Origin: an uncultured Alphaproteobacteria bacterium
GTDB taxonomy: Bacteria > Pseudomonadota > Alphaproteobacteria > Rhizobiales > Beijerinckiaceae
Assembly (NCBI GenBank): GCA_963775575.1
Contig: CAVZJG010000003.1
Span: forward strand, 492,963 to 556,962
DNA: 64,000 nucleotides
Reading direction: 5' to 3'
Below are positions 30,617 through 58,691 of this stretch, piece by piece (within the stretch, counting starts at the first letter, position 1; the number at the start of each line of letters is the position of its first letter). Below the pieces are notes generated by a model. That model saw nothing but the letters and a program-made list of their open reading frames with translations, did no database searches and was not told the DNA's origin. A program made the position numbers and the translations under genes.

Positions 30617-31531
30617 TTACCCAAGCAGCCGCTTCAGTGCGTCCGATTGCTCGGCGAACTTTCGGGCATTGGTCTTCCGCAGCCGTTCCAGGTTTTGCAG
30701 CTTCCAGCGCGGGCCAGGGAGTTGCTCAAGATGCGGCACACCAAGCAGCGACCATTCGGGCTCCGCGGCGACCAGTGACAGCAGGAACCGGCGCTCATCG
30801 GCGCTCAGACCTTCCTGGAGCTCACGCATCATGCGCACGCGCACCGTCAGGAGCGCGTCGAGATCGACGGGTTTGGCGGTCATGCCTGTAAAATTGTGCT
30901 CGAACTCCTGGCGGATGTCGCGCAGCGACGGAAACAGGACCTCGTGCACCGGCCGGTTATGGCTCGCGAGATAGACGACGAAAGCCCGACGAATGCCGGC
31001 GGTGATTCCCTCATGCGCGAAGAGCTGCAGGACGTCGAACAGATCGCGGGGATGCTGGCGGTCCATCGCCGCGACCAGCTTGCCGCCATACACGTCCTCG
31101 AGCGACACGACCGGGATTTCGAGATCAGCATGCAGCGTCTGCCGCGCATTCTGTGTCAGCGACGCCATGCGCACCGGTTGGACGGTGCCGCGCATGACGA
31201 AGTTGACCTCGATCTTGACCTCGATGCGGCTCCGTCGCACCAGCAGCTTGGTCTCGCCGGACTCCACCGCGGCCGGCGCATGGGTCTGGAAGCCTTGCTT
31301 CCGCAAGCGTGCGGCGGACTGGCGAATAGCCTCGTTGATGCGCCGGAGCGCCTGATCGCGCGGCAGCGCGTGGTCGGGAAACACCAGATCGAGATCGACG
31401 GAAAGGCGCGGCATGTTGCGCAGGAACAGGTTGATCGCTGTGCCGCCCTTGAGCGCGAACGTGTCGTCGACAAGCACCAGCGGCGCGACGCGCGTCAGCA
31501 GCCGTGCACTGTCGAGATAGATCTGGTTCAT
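30617..31531 (-). CDS. abiEii: AbiEii/AbiGii-family nucleotidyltransferase toxin (type IV TA)
   Basis: FALKGGTAINLF...PRLSVDLDLVF. The start overlaps the upstream stop (ATGA). Confidence 0.85.
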   Translation of the reverse strand: MNQIYLDSARLLTRVAPLVLVDDTFALKGGTAINLFLRNMPRLSVDLDLVFPDHALPRDQALRRINEAIRQSAARLRKQGFQTHAPAAVESGETKLLVRRSRIEVKIEVNFVMRGTVQPVRMASLTQNARQTLHADLEIPVVSLEDVYGGKLVAAMDRQHPRDLFDVLQLFAHEGITAGIRRAFVVYLASHNRPVHEVLFPSLRDIRQEFEHNFTGMTAKPVDLDALLTVRVRMMRELQEGLSADERRFLLSLVAAEPEWSLLGVPHLEQLPGPRWKLQNLERLRKTNARKFAEQSDALKRLLG

Positions 31532-32265
31532 GGTTTCAGCACCAGGAGCCCGTCACCGGAACGGGACACCCATGGCCGGTCGCTGCCCTTGGGCAATTGA
31601 GACGGATCGAGCTTAGCGGCCCAGGGCTGGGAGAGTTCGCGGCCGAGCTGCAGGCACAGGCGCACGGTCTTGACGCTGGTGCAGCGCTTGAGCAGGTCGC
31701 GCAGCACGTCGGCGCGCAGGCTGTAAGTGCTCTCGACCAGTTCGCGTGCTTCCTGCAGCGGCTGCCGGACGCCGACTTCGCTCAGCACCTCCAGCAGTGC
31801 GCGCTCCGGCGCCGAGACGAGCGGGCCGCCCTTGCGGTTCTCGAAGGGTCTAACATGAAGCAGCGCGCCGGGCTGCTCCTTGAACAGCCGCTTGCGGTGG
31901 TGCTCGGCCGGGAAGCGCTGGGTGAACCACTCCGGAAGGCGCCCAGCTTTCCAGCCATAAAGCTGTAGGACAGGCCGTTGGGACAGGTATTGGCGTATGC
32001 CATGCCAGTCGAGCGCGGACTTGCCGCCGACATGCAATCCATCGAAGCTCCGCTGCAGCAGAGCGAGGCTCGGATGCAAGGCGGGCGGATCGTTCGGCCG
32101 GCAATAGACGCCGCGCGCCAGCCGTTGCAGCCAGCCGGCACGGACATAGTGGACGGCGAGATCAGCCGATATCCCCAGGGCGGCGAGGTCCTCGGAGATC
32201 AGCGGCGTGCCCGGCGCCAAGCGGGTATAAAGCCGATTTAGCTTGTTCCTATGAGTCGTAGGCAT
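31528..32265 (-). CDS. abiEi: AbiEi-family antitoxin/transcriptional regulator
   Basis: LISEDLAALGIS...YVRAGWLQRLARGVYCRP. Start MPTTHRNKL at 32265. Confidence 0.8.
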   Translation of the reverse strand: MPTTHRNKLNRLYTRLAPGTPLISEDLAALGISADLAVHYVRAGWLQRLARGVYCRPNDPPALHPSLALLQRSFDGLHVGGKSALDWHGIRQYLSQRPVLQLYGWKAGRLPEWFTQRFPAEHHRKRLFKEQPGALLHVRPFENRKGGPLVSAPERALLEVLSEVGVRQPLQEARELVESTYSLRADVLRDLLKRCTSVKTVRLCLQLGRELSQPWAAKLDPSQLPKGSDRPWVSRSGDGLLVLKP

Positions 32266-32460
32266 ACTACGATTATAGCAACAATTCGAAAGCCGGGCCA
32301 GGTTTGGATTCAGTGCCGCCATCGTAGCCCAGATACGATAATTCGTACTATCTCAAATGGACGGGGAAAGCCTTCCCCTGCGGCCGAGCCTACGGTCTCG
32401 GCCGACCCCTTCTGCGGGGACACCCCGCAACGCCCCGAGAGCCAGAGTGCGGACGGGTTT

Positions 32461-52411: not shown

Positions 52412-52658
52412 TTCAAATCGCACTTCCTCGCAGCTTGTCGGGGATCATCGCATGTTCGGCGGCGGGGCATCGGGAGCTCGGGGACACGGGCCACGGACGG
52501 CAAGATAAAAGCGCCGACTGGCGTCGGACGCATGTGGTTGGTTGGGTTGGATATTTTTGGCGTCGGAGCAACAGGGCCTGCTGGCGCTTGCGGCAAAAAT
52601 TCCAACAATCTCAATCCTTCGAGCGCCATCGCGCGGATTTGACAATGGTCCCACGACC

Positions 52659-54413
52659 ATGACGACCCGTGACGACGAGTTCCACATCCAGCCCGGCCGC
52701 ATCCGACACGGCGCCCAGGGGGCCAAGCGTCCGAAGTCGTTTGTCGGCGAGGCGATGCGGGCGGCCAAGAAGGCCGGCCACACGGGGAAGAACTTCGGCC
52801 GAACCACCGGCGGCAAGCAGCGCTCGACCTTCGGCCGAGGACGCAGCGCCGCTCTCGCCCTGTCATCGCGATCACGCGCCCGGCGTGTCGTCGTCATGGC
52901 CCGGATCGTACGCCACCACGGCAAGCGATTCGCCTCGGCGCCGCTGACAAGGCACATCGCTTATCTCAAGCGCGAGGGAGTAACGCGGGACGGAACGGAC
53001 GCACGGATGTTTGGCGCGGACTCCGATGCGGCCGATACGCAAGCCTTCGCCGAGCGATGCGAAAATGACCGGCATCATTTCCGGTTCATTGTTTCTCCAG
53101 AAGACGCCGCCGAGCTCGAGAGCGTTGGCGCCTTCACGCGCGAACTGATGGCGGATGCCGAGCGGGACCTCGCAACGAAGCTCGACTGGGTCGCTGTGGA
53201 CCACTGGAACACCGACAATCCGCACGTCCATCTCCTGATCCGCGGTCGCGCCGACGACGGCCAGGACCTCGTCATCAGTCGCGACTACATCAGTCGGGGC
53301 TTCCGCGATCGCGCCGCCGAGCGCGTCTCCTTGGAGCTCGGCCCGCGCAGCGAGCAGGAAATCCGATCGTCCCTGGAGAAGGAAGTCGAGGCCGAGCGCT
53401 GGACCAGCCTCGATCGGGCGCTGCGGAACATCGCCGACGACTGCGCCGGCGTCGCGAATCTACGACTTGGCGCGTCGGACGAAGACCCCGAGCTGCGCCG
53501 GCTTATGCTAGGCCGCGCGGCAAAGCTCGAACGGCTCGGGCTCGCCGAGAAAGTCGGCACGGCGTGTTGGACGTTGAAGCCCGGCGCCGAGCAGACGCTG
53601 CGCGACCTTTCAATCCGCGGCGACATCATCAAAACCATGCACCGCGCGATGATCGGCGCCGGCCGTGAACCGGATGTCTCCGGCTTCGCCTTGCACGGCG
53701 ATGACCCAGCCGCTCCTGTCCTCGGCCGGCTGGTCGCGCGCGGGCTGCACGACGAGCTGAAGGGATCGGCATACACGATTGTCGAGGGCGTCGATGGCCG
53801 GACCCATCATCTGCGCTTTCCCGACTTGGAAATGACCGGCGACGCCAGACCCGGCGCGATCGTCGAGGCGCGATCGTATGAAGATGCGAGCGGGCGGAAG
53901 CGGCTGTCCCTTGCTACGCGTTCGGACCTCGCTATTGAGGCGCAGGTCACCGCGTCAGGCGCGACCTGGATCGACCGTCAGCTTCTCGCGCGCGAACCGG
54001 CGAACAGCGGCGGAGGATTCGGCGCCGAAGTTCGCGAGGCAATGGAGCGTCGTGTCGATCACCTCGTTGAGGAGGGCATGGCGCGCCGGCAGGGCCAGCG
54101 GGTCGTATTCGCGCGCGATCTGCTCGACACCCTGAAGCAGCGCGAGCTGGGCGAGGCATCTGCAAAACTCGCGGCTGAAACCGGCCTCGCGCATCGCCCG
54201 TCTGCCGAAGGCGAGCACGTCGCCGGCGTCTATCGCCAGCGTGTCACGCTCGCCTCGGGGCGGTTCGCCATGATCGATGATGGTCTCGGTTTCCAGCTCG
54301 TGCCCTGGCGGCCCGCGCTGGAGCGGCAACTCGGAAGAGAAGTTTCAGGCGTAATGGCGCCCGGTGGAACGGTTGAATGGAATTTTGGGCGCAGAAGGGG
54401 AATAGGAATGTGA
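52659..54413 (+). CDS. relaxase/mobilization nuclease (RlxS-like, DUF3363)
   Basis: HIAYLKREGV..., HFRFIVSPED, HWNTDNPHVHLLIRG (histidine triad). Confidence 0.85.
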   Translation: MTTRDDEFHIQPGRIRHGAQGAKRPKSFVGEAMRAAKKAGHTGKNFGRTTGGKQRSTFGRGRSAALALSSRSRARRVVVMARIVRHHGKRFASAPLTRHIAYLKREGVTRDGTDARMFGADSDAADTQAFAERCENDRHHFRFIVSPEDAAELESVGAFTRELMADAERDLATKLDWVAVDHWNTDNPHVHLLIRGRADDGQDLVISRDYISRGFRDRAAERVSLELGPRSEQEIRSSLEKEVEAERWTSLDRALRNIADDCAGVANLRLGASDEDPELRRLMLGRAAKLERLGLAEKVGTACWTLKPGAEQTLRDLSIRGDIIKTMHRAMIGAGREPDVSGFALHGDDPAAPVLGRLVARGLHDELKGSAYTIVEGVDGRTHHLRFPDLEMTGDARPGAIVEARSYEDASGRKRLSLATRSDLAIEAQVTASGATWIDRQLLAREPANSGGGFGAEVREAMERRVDHLVEEGMARRQGQRVVFARDLLDTLKQRELGEASAKLAAETGLAHRPSAEGEHVAGVYRQRVTLASGRFAMIDDGLGFQLVPWRPALERQLGREVSGVMAPGGTVEWNFGRRRGIGM

Positions 54414-54655
54414 TTGGTGTCGAATTGGGGAAACGAACGGTGGCCCGAGCCTCCGGCCCCGGGGTGGTTGACTGCTGCGCCTGACCCCGAGCGGCCTATT
54501 GCGACCTGAGCCGCGAGCGTCCGGGCTGGGTGCAGGCTATGTGAATGCGAATCGGCCCCGCAACTCGACCCCGATCGAGTCAATTATTTCAATTATTGCG
54601 CCGATCGGCGTTGGAACCCCGCACGTTTCACACGCTGGGCGGCCATGGCTGCGCG

Positions 54656-56500
54656 TTACCGCGCGAAGGCGGCGGATCGCTCGGTCACGATGGCGATCAC
54701 CTTGTCTTGCGCGGCTCGGGCACTGTCCGATCGACCCGCAAAATCGGGCAGGCGCAACGATGCGGCGCGCGCCGCGAGACGCGACGCAAGCTCAACCACC
54801 GTCGCCTCGGCTTCGCCCGTCGGCAGACCGATCGTGCGCGCCAGTGCGAGGAAGTCTTGCAGGCTCAGCCGGTCGTCCTTGCCATTGAGCTTCAACGCCA
54901 TCCGGTCCCCGCCCAACCCCGGAAAGACGCGCGTGGTGACGGCGTCATAGAGCGGCGCAAACCGGACGGACGTGAACGCTTTGGCTCCAGCGTCGGCCGT
55001 TTTGAGCATGGCGAGGTTCTTAAGGTGCATGTCGCCATCAGCAATCAGCCAGGCGAAGACGGCCCGCTTAAACAGGATTTCAAGGTCAGCCGCAGGTTCG
55101 GTCGACAGCGGCCGCAGGCCCCTGGCAATGCGTTCGATCGTGCCGTCGTATTTTGCCGAAGCCGGAAGATCCAGGATCGAGCAGAAGTCCTCCAGCGCAA
55201 GGCGGCGTTGGTCCTTGGGACCGCGCCGGATGTCGAAACGCTCGACCACCAGCGCCGGCGACATGCCATCGGGCATTTCAATGAGCGCCGCTGCCGGGGC
55301 GTCAAAACCGGCCGCACGTCCGAACTCGAGACAGAGCCACTCCACGACGGGCAACGCCGCGAACCCGGCCGTACCGGCCGGTTTGAGAATGTGCGTGAAC
55401 GGCTGGTCGATGGCCGGGACGAGAGCGCCGTCGGCGGCAAGGCTCATCGGCGCCTTGATCTGGACGCCCGACAGGCGGGGCGTCTCGGCGCGCGCGAAGA
55501 TGCGCGCGAGATTCTGCTCGAAAGTCTCCTCGATCTCCCCGCGCGCCGGTCCGGCATAGCGTCCGGTGAACCGGCCTGCATCGGTGAAGGCAGCGAGCGG
55601 CGCGGCGAGGACGTCGGCCGGCAACGCGGCCAGTTCCTCGCGGCTTTCGACGATGGCGATGTTCGACATATAGCGCCGGCCGCGGCGAAGCGCCTCGCGT
55701 TCGTCGCGTTCATGCAGAACCTGCGCGAGCCAGCCTTCGGGCAGGAGCGACTCGATGAAGGCCGGAAGCTTTCCCGGCGTGGTCTCCCGCACCAGCGCCG
55801 GCCCAACGCGCTTTTGCGGTTTCCATCGCCATTCGAAACCGTCATGCGTCAGCCGTCCGAGCGGGTCGCCGTGCCAGGCGACGAGAAGGTCGAGCGCCGC
55901 CTTGTTGACTGGAGCCTTGGCCGTTCCCGGCTGGGCCAGGAGGTAGCGCTCGGCGCCCTCGCCTTCGCGATACCAAGCATTCTCGCGAGCCAGCGCCCAG
56001 ACCGCGCCGGCCGCAGCCTGCGGGGACCCATGCTCTTCGACCAGACGCGCCGCCATCTGAGTTCGCATGTCCACGGTGACCGCGCTGGCGTGCTCACTCC
56101 TCAGCCGAAAGGCTTCCAGGAATCGCTGGCGCGGCGACGACACATCGATACGCAACTCCCCCAGATCGTCGCCGATCACCGCTATCGCCGTCGACGGATG
56201 CGGCGGCGCCTCGTTCTGGACGATCTCAAGGGTGCGCAGGCGGGTGCGTTGATTGCGCCGGCCGCTAATGAAAAGTCTTCCGTCCGGCGTGGGCGCCAGG
56301 AGAACCGCGCTCGCGGACGACAAATAGGCCTTTGGGTAGAGATAATGGGCGATGCGGACGGCATGGCCGAGGATCGCGGCCTCCGCGTCCCCGTCGTGAT
56401 CGACATAAACGCCGCGGACAAGCTGGATCAGCTCGCCCGCTTGGGCCCGAAGGTGCGCCCGCTTGGCGTCGATGGTTTCGCCGACAAGATGGATGGTCAT
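54656..56500 (-). CDS. HipA-family Ser/Thr kinase fused to an AbiEi-like N-terminal domain
   Basis: The C-terminal ~400 aa carry LLPEGW, SGVQIKAPM, DGDMHLKNLAML and FAPLYDAVTT (HipA N-terminal plus kinase core). The N-terminal ~230 aa carry AGELIQLVRGVYVD...AYLSSASAVLL, like AbiEi antitoxin domains. Start at 56500, alternative 56515. Confidence 0.8.
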   Translation of the reverse strand: MTIHLVGETIDAKRAHLRAQAGELIQLVRGVYVDHDGDAEAAILGHAVRIAHYLYPKAYLSSASAVLLAPTPDGRLFISGRRNQRTRLRTLEIVQNEAPPHPSTAIAVIGDDLGELRIDVSSPRQRFLEAFRLRSEHASAVTVDMRTQMAARLVEEHGSPQAAAGAVWALARENAWYREGEGAERYLLAQPGTAKAPVNKAALDLLVAWHGDPLGRLTHDGFEWRWKPQKRVGPALVRETTPGKLPAFIESLLPEGWLAQVLHERDEREALRRGRRYMSNIAIVESREELAALPADVLAAPLAAFTDAGRFTGRYAGPARGEIEETFEQNLARIFARAETPRLSGVQIKAPMSLAADGALVPAIDQPFTHILKPAGTAGFAALPVVEWLCLEFGRAAGFDAPAAALIEMPDGMSPALVVERFDIRRGPKDQRRLALEDFCSILDLPASAKYDGTIERIARGLRPLSTEPAADLEILFKRAVFAWLIADGDMHLKNLAMLKTADAGAKAFTSVRFAPLYDAVTTRVFPGLGGDRMALKLNGKDDRLSLQDFLALARTIGLPTGEAEATVVELASRLAARAASLRLPDFAGRSDSARAAQDKVIAIVTERSAAFAR

Positions 56501-56504
56501 CGGA

Positions 56505-56588
56505 TTATCTCGCATCTCAGATGCGCGTTGATCCTGCTCCAGGCTTAAACAGTCAAGAATTATCTCGCATCTGAGATACGAGATATTG
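56505..56588. promoter_or_regulatory. two copies of the TTATCTCGCATCT(C/G)AGAT operator-like palindrome upstream of or over the hipA-like start
   Basis: The copies lie at 56505-56522 and 56560-56577. The distal copy is part of a 13-bp-arm palindrome TATCTCGCATCT-G-AGATACGAGATA. Confidence 0.55.
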
Positions 56589-56705
56589 CCGTCATCACGC
56601 TGACCCACAAGCCGTCCGAATCCTTCGCCGCCCTATCCTGAAACGCGCCCGCCAGCAATTCGGGCTTGAACGCGCCATAGAAGGGTCTCTTGATCCCCCT
56701 GCGCC

Positions 56706-58691
56706 ATGAATGCGACGAAAATCCTCTGGGGCCAGGTGCTCCTTGTCAGCGCCGTCGTGCTCGCCTTCCTGTGGGCGGCGACGGAGTGGACAGCGTGGCG
56801 GCTCGGCTTCCAACCACAGCTCGGGCGCCCTTGGTTCGAGCTGTTCGGCTGGCCCTTCTACCATCCACCCGCCTTCTTCTGGTGGTGGTTCGCGTTTGAC
56901 GCTTACGCGCGGGGCATCTTCGTCGAGGGCGCCTATATCGCGGCGTCCGGCGGAATCGCCGCAGTCGTTGTGGCCGTCGCGTTGTCGGTGTGGCGCGCGC
57001 GGGACGTCAAACGGGTCACGACCTACGGCTCCGCACGCTGGGCCGAGGCGCGTGAAGTCCGCGAGGCCGGCCTACTTGATCACGATGGCGTGCTTCTCGG
57101 CCGTTGGCGCGGCGACTACCTGCGCCACGATGGCCCCGAGCACGTGCTTTGCTTCGCGCCGACCCGGAGCGGCAAGGGCGTCGGCCTGGTCGTGCCGACG
57201 CTGCTGACCTGGCCGGGCTCGGCGATCGTTCACGACATCAAGGGCGAGAACTGGTCGCTGACCGCCGGATGGCGGGCGCGGTTCGGCCGCGTGCTGCTTT
57301 TCGATCCGACCAATGCGCAGAGCGCCGCCTACAATCCTTTGCTTGAAGTGCGCCGCGGCGAATGGGAGGTGCGCGACGTCCAGAACATCGCGGATGTGCT
57401 GGTCGATCCGGAAGGCGCGCTGGAACGGCGGAACCATTGGGAGAAAACCAGCCATTCGCTGCTGGTCGGCACGATCCTGCATGTCCTCTACGCCGAGCCC
57501 GACAAGACGCTCGCCGGCGTCGCCAGTTTCCTCTCCGATCCCAAGCGCCCGATCGAGACGACGTTGCGCGCGATGATGACGACGCCGCATCTGGGCGAAC
57601 GCGGCGTGCATCCCGTCGTCGCCAGCGCCGCGCGCGAGCTTCTGAACAAGAGTGAGAACGAACGATCTGGCGTGCTGTCGACCGCCATGTCGTTCCTTGG
57701 CCTCTATCGCGATCCCGTGGTAGCGGCCGTGACGCGCCAGTGCGATTGGCGCATCCGCGATCTTGTCGAAGACGCTCGGCCCGCGACCCTCTACCTCGTC
57801 GTGCCGCCCTCGGACATCAGCCGCACCAAGCCGCTCATTCGGCTGATCCTCAACCAAATTGGCCGACGGTTGACGGAAGAACTGGAGTCGAAGCGACGGC
57901 GCCATCGCCTGCTGCTGATGCTCGACGAATTTCCGGCGCTGGGCCGCCTCGATTTCTTCGAGAGCGCGCTGGCCTTCATGGCTGGCTACGGCCTGAAGAG
58001 TTTCCTCATCGCACAGTCGCTGAACCAGATCGAGAAAGCCTACGGCCAGAACAACTCCATCCTCGACAACTGCCATGTGCGCGTGAGCTTCGCGACCAAC
58101 GATGAGCGGACCGCCAAGCGCGTGTCCGACGCGCTCGGCGCCGCCACCGAGATGCGCGCGATGAAGAACTATGCCGGCCATCGCCTGAGCCCGTGGCTCG
58201 GCCACCTGATGGTGTCGCGCCAGGAAACCGCGCGACCGCTGCTGACGCCAGGCGAGGTCATGCAGCTCCCCCATGACGACGAACTGGTGCTGGTCTCCGG
58301 CTGTCATCCGATCCGCGCCAAGAAGGCGCGCTACTTCGAGGACCCGCAATTGCAGTCGCGCATTCTACCGCCGCCCAAGTGGTCCCGCGCGATCGAAGCC
58401 GTCAGCCAACCCGGCCCAGCGCGTCCAGCGCGCAGCGACGATTGGGCGGAGTCGATCGTGGCGCCGCCACCGGCGCAGATCGAAGATCCGGACAATTCCG
58501 GCATCCGCCGCGAACCCGAACTCCCCGCGCATGAGGAGATCGTTCCCGAGCCACGTCAGCCCGCACAGGAGTTCGAATTGGGGGAAGACGAACCGGACGA
58601 CGATGCGCAGCGCCTTCGCGTGATGCAGCGGCAGGTCCGCACGATCGCCCGGCAGGTCTCGCTCGATCCTGCCGACGACATGGGGCTGTGA
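56706..58691 (+). CDS. traG: type IV coupling protein TraG/VirD4
   Basis: 661 aa with N-terminal TM segments and FAPTRSGKGVGLVVP (Walker A). Confidence 0.93.
   Translation: MNATKILWGQVLLVSAVVLAFLWAATEWTAWRLGFQPQLGRPWFELFGWPFYHPPAFFWWWFAFDAYARGIFVEGAYIAASGGIAAVVVAVALSVWRARDVKRVTTYGSARWAEAREVREAGLLDHDGVLLGRWRGDYLRHDGPEHVLCFAPTRSGKGVGLVVPTLLTWPGSAIVHDIKGENWSLTAGWRARFGRVLLFDPTNAQSAAYNPLLEVRRGEWEVRDVQNIADVLVDPEGALERRNHWEKTSHSLLVGTILHVLYAEPDKTLAGVASFLSDPKRPIETTLRAMMTTPHLGERGVHPVVASAARELLNKSENERSGVLSTAMSFLGLYRDPVVAAVTRQCDWRIRDLVEDARPATLYLVVPPSDISRTKPLIRLILNQIGRRLTEELESKRRRHRLLLMLDEFPALGRLDFFESALAFMAGYGLKSFLIAQSLNQIEKAYGQNNSILDNCHVRVSFATNDERTAKRVSDALGAATEMRAMKNYAGHRLSPWLGHLMVSRQETARPLLTPGEVMQLPHDDELVLVSGCHPIRAKKARYFEDPQLQSRILPPPKWSRAIEAVSQPGPARPARSDDWAESIVAPPPAQIEDPDNSGIRREPELPAHEEIVPEPRQPAQEFELGEDEPDDDAQRLRVMQRQVRTIARQVSLDPADDMGL

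Follow-up and report, generated by a model that had tools for sequence, protein, structure and literature searches.

A HipA-family kinase fused to an AbiEi-like module and preceded by a conserved pair of predicted operators

Introduction

Hip kinases are textbook persistence toxins, and the question raised by the locus described here is how such a kinase could be kept in check when it stands alone. The control of antitoxin-less Hip kinases is unexplained, as has been noted for YjjJ/HipH (PMC8262856). The gene under study lies on a stretch of 64,000 nucleotides from an uncultured alphaproteobacterium of the Beijerinckiaceae (contig CAVZJG010000003.1, positions 492,963 to 556,962), hereafter the window, in whose numbering all coordinates are given. 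Its coding sequence (54656..56500, minus strand, stop codon included) specifies a 614-aa protein in which an AbiEi-like module, of the kind known from AbiE toxin-antitoxin (TA) systems, precedes a HipA-family kinase. We consider it reasonably likely that this protein is a monocistronic, autorepressed HipA-family kinase, whose AbiEi-like module binds operators at the promoter of its own gene and probably restrains the kinase in cis. With a compact unit, a predicted operator pair, a structurally defined cis module of another TA lineage and a clear set of mutants to be made, the family offers a tractable case of antitoxin-less Hip control.

A complete Hip kinase joined to an AbiEi-like module

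The open reading frame (ORF) runs uninterrupted over 54656..56608 (minus strand) in the ORF listing, and its start was set at the ATG at 56500 (MTIHLVGE...), which is backed by homologues of 614-622 aa and by a 12-sequence alignment and yields the 614-aa product. A preliminary description of this DNA, made from the letters alone, had recognised a HipA-family kinase by its motifs, and both the assignment and the motifs hold. Pfam HipA_C matches residues 343-576 (E=4.8e-42, 144.5 bits against a cut-off of 30.5) and is matched by 12 of 12 diverse family members; LLPEGW (252-257), LSGVQIKAPM (343-352), ERFD (420-423), GDMHLKN (489-495) and APLYD (515-519) are all in place, as are the quoted N-terminal stretches LVRGVYVD (27-34) and AYLSSASAVLL (58-68).

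Conservation was read from the alignment of 12 sequences, with homologues 29-60% identical and with motif definitions taken from PMC8262856. In the Gly-rich loop LSGVQIK (343-349), S344, the counterpart of the Ser autophosphorylated in HipA and HipT, is present in at least 90% of the sequences, and G345, Q347 and K349 are invariant; the catalytic residues D490, H492, K494 and N495 and the Mg-binding D519 are invariant down to 29% identity, and ERFD is conserved. Since the catalytic, Gly-loop and Mg-binding residues are thus invariant or nearly so in homologues rather than degenerate, the kinase looks active, complete and with its catalytic motifs intact.

A full-length AlphaFold2 model built on 12 homologues (mean predicted local distance difference test, pLDDT, 87.9) had E. 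coli HipA as its top PDB structure match (3dnt, E=1e-17, about 460 aligned columns), followed by Shewanella HipA, Legionella and E. coli HipT, and CtkA (Foldseek). The HipS antitoxin chains 7ab3_E and 8ezr_A also matched the model (prob 1.0, about 98 columns), from which we conclude that the protein, like HipA, carries a HipS-like N-subdomain-1 in cis. This subdomain spans residues ~203-300 (55601..55894, minus strand), holds LLPEGW, and is hit by weak Couple_hipA matches in 8 of the 12 family members. The core Hip kinase domain follows at residues ~301-613 (54662..55600, minus strand), supported by HipA_C, by the invariant motifs and by sequence matches in PDB, the closest being Legionella HipT(Lp) (E=9e-18) and E. 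coli HipA (E=6e-13).

The extra N-terminal part, previously put at about 230 residues, is actually some 200 long: residues 1-189 are structured, and residues 190-202 form a disordered linker of variable length (55895..55933, minus strand; pLDDT <50 at 191-200, indel-rich in the 12-sequence alignment). A separate model of residues 1-203 (pLDDT 91.6; predicted template modelling score, pTM, 0.85) had a sole significant PDB match, the AbiEi of S. agalactiae 6Y8Q (Foldseek, E=5.9e-6 and 7.3e-5, prob 1.0), aligned over 195-201 columns on a target of 184-195 residues with both domains covered. The resemblance to AbiEi proposed in the preliminary description therefore stands, but its restriction to the DNA-binding domain does not: the model supports the N-terminal module as a counterpart of the whole two-domain AbiEi, with a reduced winged helix-turn-helix (wHTH). 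The next matches, which were not significant, were nucleotidyltransferase-like proteins (5uvd, ANT(4')), and such structural neighbours have likewise been reported for AbiEi itself (PMC7319586).

In the predicted structure, residues 1-35 (56396..56500, minus strand) form a reduced winged-helix element with pLDDT >90, consisting of a strand (3-6), a recognition-type helix (12-20) and a beta-hairpin wing (24-34), which aligns to H3 and the wing of AbiEi; G30 in the wing is invariant in the family alignment. Residues 39-189 (55934..56386, minus strand), with helices, a five-strand row and a helix bundle, resemble the C-terminal (antitoxin) domain of AbiEi by Foldseek against 6y8q_A. The winged helix of AbiEi has three helices (H1-H3) and three strands (PMC7319586), whereas in our model just a short strand, one helix and the wing precede the C-terminal-domain-like part, H1 and H2 of AbiEi being absent. 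By sequence, weak matches converge on one stretch, '...L.R..RG.Y... P.A.LS..SA'. PADLOC AbiEi models match the fusion protein at E about 0.01, Pfam AbiEi_4 is matched in 4 of the 12 family members (best 4e-4), hhalign of the N-domain to the window's own AbiEi gives E=1.5e-4 over 30 columns, and PDB profile matches of the N-domain to 6y8q and 9hlo lie at E=1.8.

A pair of predicted operators upstream of the fusion gene

Two 27-bp dyads precede the start codon. The proximal box (56505..56531, minus strand; TCAACGCGCATCT-G-AGATGCGAGATAA) ends 4 nt before the ATG, overlaps the putative -10 element and is conserved in register across 62 loci, namely 61 found in GTDB genomes plus the window. The distal box (56560..56586, minus strand; ATATCTCGTATCT-C-AGATGCGAGATAA) lies 55 bp away centre to centre, and DNA homology ends at its outer edge. 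A putative sigma-70-type promoter (56528..56556, minus strand), placed by consensus only, would consist of a -35 TTGACT (56551-56556), a 17-nt spacer and a -10 GATCAA (56528-56533); TTGACT begins 3 nt past the distal box, GATCAA overlaps the start of the proximal box, and most loci have a TTGAC-like hexamer after the distal box. When the 64-kb window was scanned with the box pattern, two matches were obtained, both at the fusion-gene promoter, against 0.01 expected, and no further copies that would point to a regulon.

Paired boxes, each at least 8/13 symmetric and 50-70 bp apart, were found in 55 of the 62 loci, with a mean best dyad score of 10.7/13 versus 7.6 in shuffles; both boxes were at least 9/13 symmetric in 50/62 loci versus 0.4% of shuffles. 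Two flavours could be distinguished. Clade A (26 loci, including the window) has a spacing of 53-57 bp, mostly 55, the consensus TTATCgCGCATCT.AGATGCGcGATAA and the predicted recognition helix DAkRAHqRAQaGEL, and clade B (29 loci) has a spacing of 62-67 bp, mostly 63-64, the consensus CTTTCnCGtATcT.AaATaCGnGAAAG and the predicted recognition helix DKxRsHYxAEtGkL, so that box sequence and spacing switch together with the recognition-helix sequence. Through unrelated hosts and contexts, no product other than the fusion protein is always found with the boxes, which makes it their obvious candidate ligand. AbiEi itself represses abiE via two inverted repeats at -35/-10 and acts as antitoxin through its C-terminal domain (PMC3985639, PMC7319586). 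Self-regulation, which the preliminary description had raised as an idea, is thus supported at the sequence level by the conservation of the paired operators.

Compared with clade-A relatives in other contexts, the window DNA is homologous upstream as far as 56585-56593, and downstream the homology stops at or before the stop codon. Because these limits fall at the distal box on one side and the stop codon on the other, we take the unit to be the operators, the promoter and one ORF (~1.93 kb).

Alternatively, a factor of the host or of the element could bind the boxes, or they could function as an RNA or DNA structure (5'-untranslated-region (UTR) hairpin, cruciform or recombination site), the module then being a cis-antitoxin or sensor that does not bind DNA. 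The reduction of the wHTH would fit such a role, as would the location of the proximal box, which would fall in the 5' UTR provided that the promoter is correctly placed, and the mutual complementarity of the boxes (56506-56585, 30-nt arms, 83%), by which a cruciform or long hairpin could form. We nevertheless regard this explanation as distinctly unlikely. The boxes follow the gene through Alpha-, Beta- and Gammaproteobacteria and through unrelated contexts, with homology ending at the distal box, which makes a fixed trans factor unlikely, and their flavour shifts with the helix sequence of the protein; moreover, the distal box lies upstream of the -35-like hexamer and would therefore not be transcribed, and a box downstream of the gene is absent. 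As to an RNA element, Rfam yields just a sub-threshold microRNA-like match (24 bits against a gathering score of 78), which reflects the palindromes and is meaningless.

Some variation at the promoter was also seen. The proximal box in clade A is itself promoter-like (TTAACG-N16-GATAAT, 9/12 in locus L001), ending 3 nt before the ATG. In a very distant member (L111; 639 aa, 27% identity to the seed P0198), the region 5' of the start (650-805) has a pair of 22-nt direct repeats, GATGTC[T/C]ACAA[A/C]ACGCCTATTA, ~62 bp apart; its paired boxes are thus direct repeats, another type, in place of dyads. No clear paired boxes were found in the upstream region of the other distant member, L109.

The fusion family and its distribution

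Database searches with the full protein yielded more than 2,000 relatives, of which the best 120 are 83-99% identical and 606-648 aa long (mostly 614-622). Their hosts are Alphaproteobacteria, among them Xanthobacter, Methylovirgula, Rhizobium, Mesorhizobium and Phenylobacterium, and the proteins are labelled just 'HipA family toxin' or 'HipA domain-containing protein'. When residues 1-230 were searched exhaustively against 1.84 billion representatives, 240 matches were obtained in all, and every full-length one was a protein of 600-684 aa with the same architecture. Short or odd matches considered as unfused forms proved to be contig-end fragments, frameshifted copies, a chimeric call and a spurious WD40 match. 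By these searches the N-domain exists solely fused to the kinase, and fusion is the rule.

A scan of GTDB species genomes gave the 61 full-length loci, in Alpha-, Beta- and Gammaproteobacteria and in a few metagenome-assembled genomes assigned to other phyla; the self-contained layout of a fusion gene with its own operator pair thus recurs in many Proteobacteria. A metagenome scan seeded with relatives of 27-40% identity returned mostly ordinary clade A or B members, L109 and L111 alone being truly distant. An origin from an unfused pair was also considered, and the nearest kinase-only matches (L068-L080) were uninformative: most are short HipT-like kinases (~280-330 aa) that the catalytic-motif pattern had picked up. 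Full-length clade-B members, likewise preceded by this operator pair, were found on three predicted viral contigs (IMG/VR, L088-L090, 29-45 kb); in two of these the member sits at the very contig end and may be host flank or prophage-border cargo.

A solitary gene in changing neighbourhoods

A partner gene was sought at 61-62 loci by clustering ORFs, those of at least 70 aa in a radius of 4 kb and those of 25-95 aa up to 400 bp away, and none was conserved. The most widely shared flanking ORF (at least 70 aa) occurred at no more than 9-10 of 61 loci, the largest groups being prfC, confined to one subclade, and P4-type integrases, present at five loci, and the strand and distance of the neighbours were unconstrained across the 61 loci. 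Seemingly conserved small ORFs turned out to be translations of the operator DNA, from either strand and in differing frames. The earlier observation that no small partner ORF is adjacent thus extends, on reinspection, to the window and its homologous loci, 62 in all. No hipB-type HTH antitoxin ORF was found in the flanks of the window, and no conserved candidate at the 61 loci. Similarly, no AbiEii/DUF1814 nucleotidyltransferase was found beside the fusion gene or among 113 family neighbours; the AbiEii of the window sits 23 kb from the fusion gene, paired with its own AbiEi.

The preliminary description had placed the gene in a cargo hot spot of Tn4371-type integrative and conjugative elements (ICEs). 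This agrees with Ryan et al. 2009, who reported the stretch after the relaxase and before traR/traG as a variable cargo hot spot (PMC2789088), but the position is not typical of the family. A relaxase, TraG or TrbB within 6 kb was found at 0/61 genome loci, which rules out relaxase/traG synteny as a family trait, and a 99%-identical metagenomic copy was the sole one with the relaxase/SLT context of the window; on this count the position between relaxase and traG is incidental to the family.

Instead, the nearest neighbours in the family are chromosomal genes, genes of mobile genetic elements (MGEs; AlpA, RepB, integrases) and, in a minority, defence genes: Azaca ZacC in four loci and ZacB in two (both by PADLOC models, which hit downstream neighbours), SoFic, a type I restriction subunit and SNF2/PLD helicase-nucleases. 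An 85% relative (P0090) lies in a guaA-adjacent island beside integrase, resolvase and ParB/RepB genes. Such MGE and defence-island surroundings would fit a role in defence or addiction without proving it, and the persistence, abortive-infection and ICE-stabilisation roles raised in the preliminary description are candidates only.

In the P0090 lineage (L082-L087, e.g. L082:8001-15950), there is a 4-bp overlap between the stop of the fusion gene and the start of a DUF6361 gene (397 aa); genes for proteins of 616 and 1020 aa come next, and in this one sub-lineage there may be an operonic link to a defence system. If the kinase generally worked with such neighbours, for example a DUF6361/Azaca-like cluster, it would be a component of a larger defence system and its solitary look would be secondary. 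Besides this overlap, the ZacC/ZacB matches among the neighbours of four loci speak for such an arrangement. We hold it to be very improbable, since no neighbour is common to more than 9-10/61 loci, neighbour orientation is random, and in the window and its 99%-identical copy the neighbours are conjugation genes.

Proposed mechanism

We strongly infer that the N-terminal AbiEi-like module would bind both 27-bp dyad boxes, which flank the -35 and overlap -10/+1, and that the fusion gene would in this way repress its own transcription, as AbiEi does at the abiE promoter. By analogy we further infer that the part resembling the AbiEi C-terminal domain, or else tethering to DNA, would restrain the kinase in cis, replacing the separate HipB or HipS antitoxins. 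A trigger such as phage infection, loss of the element or stress would then release the kinase, which would phosphorylate an essential target, probably a translational one as for other Hip kinases, leading to growth arrest; autophosphorylation of Ser344 beside the Gly-rich loop could inactivate or limit it. A 2026 preprint reports that AbiEi neutralises AbiEii through induced autophosphorylation of the toxin, and that the module might act on the Hip kinase in the same manner is speculation by analogy.

Several points weigh against the autorepression and cis-restraint reading. On the structural side, the pTM of the full-length model is only 0.69 and the TM-scores (template modelling) of the N-domain model versus 6Y8Q are just 0.46-0.51, and without H1 and H2 the mode of DNA binding may differ from that of AbiEi. 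Sequence similarity to AbiEi is marginal, the window protein itself falling below the Pfam AbiEi thresholds. As to the operators, their co-variation with the helix rests on two clades, that is, about two independent events, and the promoter hexamers were guessed from the consensus; the proximal box may itself hold an alternative promoter, or the transcript may be leaderless.

The same protein could also be a one-component transcription factor/kinase and no toxin, in which the Hip domain tunes the regulator, for example by autophosphorylation, or hits a non-essential target, with neither growth arrest nor TA behaviour. An antitoxin gene is indeed absent, autoregulatory operators would suit any autoregulated transcription factor, YjjJ/HipH, another HTH-fused Hip kinase, likewise lacks an understood control (PMC8262856), and many loci have ordinary chromosomal surroundings such as prfC or response regulators. 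However, the operator occurs in the window only at the gene's own promoter, which gives no sign of a regulon. The match of the fused module is to an antitoxin family, and members of the kinase family are known almost exclusively as toxins; the patchy spread on MGEs and beside defence genes, too, is typical of TA or defence cargo. We therefore judge this alternative unlikely and retain a self-repressed kinase restrained in cis as the preferred reading.

Comparison with known Hip and AbiE systems

The survey of Gerdes et al. 2021, whose sampling required an adjacent antitoxin gene, recognised ten Hip organisations, none with an AbiEi-like domain (PMC8262856). They comprise HipBA and its reversed order, HipBST, monocistronic HipH/YjjJ with an HTH and HipL with HipS-like and HIRAN domains, and further bicistronic types with HipS, HipS-HIRAN, resolvase-like or Stl-like partners (PMC8262856). 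The preliminary description had not found the present composition among the HipA organisations known to it. It is indeed absent from these ten; no family member appears in the part of Table S1 of that study that was compared, and no description of an AbiEi-HipA fusion was found in the AbiE, TASmania and general TA literature searched. A Hip kinase with a regulatory DNA-binding module in cis is not categorically new; in this family the module is one borrowed from the AbiE lineage.

The closest functional analogue is HipH/YjjJ, likewise a single gene without an adjacent antitoxin, with a DNA-binding element fused N-terminally to a Hip kinase and a Ser beside the Gly-rich loop, for which a role as cis-acting antitoxin or autoregulator has been proposed (PMC8262856). 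In contrast to the ~100 aa HTH extension of HipH, the fusion has an AbiEi-like two-domain module of ~190 aa, and its kinase keeps N-subdomain-1, as HipA does; with 16.1 bits against a cut-off of 401 for the NCBIfam YjjJ equivalog NF007297, it is not a member of that family. HipL is also a monocistronic Hip kinase with putative regulatory and DNA-binding domains in cis, but its HipS-like and HIRAN domains are C-terminal, whereas the fusion has an N-terminal AbiEi-like module and no HIRAN (no Pfam match).

With HipBA of E. coli and Shewanella the fusion shares the kinase fold with N-subdomain-1, the catalytic motifs, the autophosphorylation-type Ser and several palindromic operators overlapping the promoter. 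It differs in having just ~21% identity to HipA and no hipB gene, the DNA-binding and antitoxin functions presumably being supplied by a covalently attached unrelated fold. In HipBST, HipT is short and lacks N-subdomain-1, and HipS and HipB are encoded by separate genes, whereas here N-subdomain-1 is in cis and no operon genes lie upstream.

AbiEi (S. agalactiae 6Y8Q; M. tuberculosis Rv2827c) resembles the N-terminal module in its recognition helix and wing, followed by a beta-row and helix-bundle C-terminal domain, and in its nucleotidyltransferase-like structural neighbours. It autorepresses via paired inverted repeats at -35/-10, where the fusion gene has its predicted paired dyad boxes. 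Unlike AbiEi, the module is joined to a kinase, has no AbiEii/DUF1814 nucleotidyltransferase partner and has a wHTH without H1/H2, and its boxes are 27-bp dyads 55-64 bp apart instead of repeats arranged 23-3-23.

AbiEi-type modules would thus not be confined to nucleotidyltransferase toxins. This matters for TA and defence annotation pipelines, in which such proteins, now called plain 'HipA family toxin', would be flagged as orphan toxins. A bolder proposal, which we put forward only tentatively and think rather doubtful, is that the family is an eleventh Hip organisation: a single-polypeptide TA or abortive-infection module made from two unrelated TA types, in which the AbiEi-type module autorepresses the gene and gates the kinase in cis, perhaps by promoting an inhibitory autophosphorylation of Ser344, a phage or element-loss signal releases the kinase, and the whole, a cassette of 1.9 kb, is passed on among MGEs and defence islands.

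The conjugative-element setting

In the window, the fusion gene is convergent with a DUF3363/MobA-type relaxase gene (52542-54413, plus strand) and divergent from the gene for the TraG/VirD4 coupling protein (56706-58691, plus strand), which is followed by genes for an RHH protein, TrbB and TrbE; these coordinates agree with the orientations given in the preliminary description. On the 5' side of the relaxase, Pfam matches identify SLT, TraF (peptidase S26), DUF2840 and an RPA replication initiator, so that the window holds the backbone set RPA/DUF2840, traF, SLT, rlxS (DUF3363), traG and trb genes. The same backbone, trbB...E included, has been reported for ICEMlSymR7A/Tn4371-type elements (PMC8627217). 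The fusion gene is thus cargo in the variable relaxase/traG slot of a Tn4371/ICEMlSym-type conjugative element, where it could influence the maintenance of the element or phage defence of the host. Its G+C content (0.667) is the same as that of its flanks.

A canonical AbiE pair is found on the same element, with an AbiEi of 264 aa (AbiEi_3_N and AbiEi_3; 31528-32322, minus strand), which the preliminary description had correctly taken for a bona fide one, beside an AbiEii/DUF1814 nucleotidyltransferase (30617-31531, minus strand). The element therefore carries a classical AbiE system in addition to the AbiEi-like/HipA fusion.

Three minor features were noted around the gene. An antisense ORF of 667 aa (54545-56548, plus strand) spans the whole fusion gene and is a shadow ORF typical of high-G+C DNA, unsupported as a gene. 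The convergent relaxase and kinase genes are separated by 242 bp, in which a terminator-like hairpin is followed by a T-rich tract (54563-54580, plus strand), the count of such elements not being above chance in shuffles. Finally, a 21-nt direct repeat (56434-56476; CGCCCGCTTGGGCCCGAAGGT / CGCCCGCTTGGCGTCGATGGT, 81%), which may be due to chance, lies inside the 5' coding part for the recognition helix.

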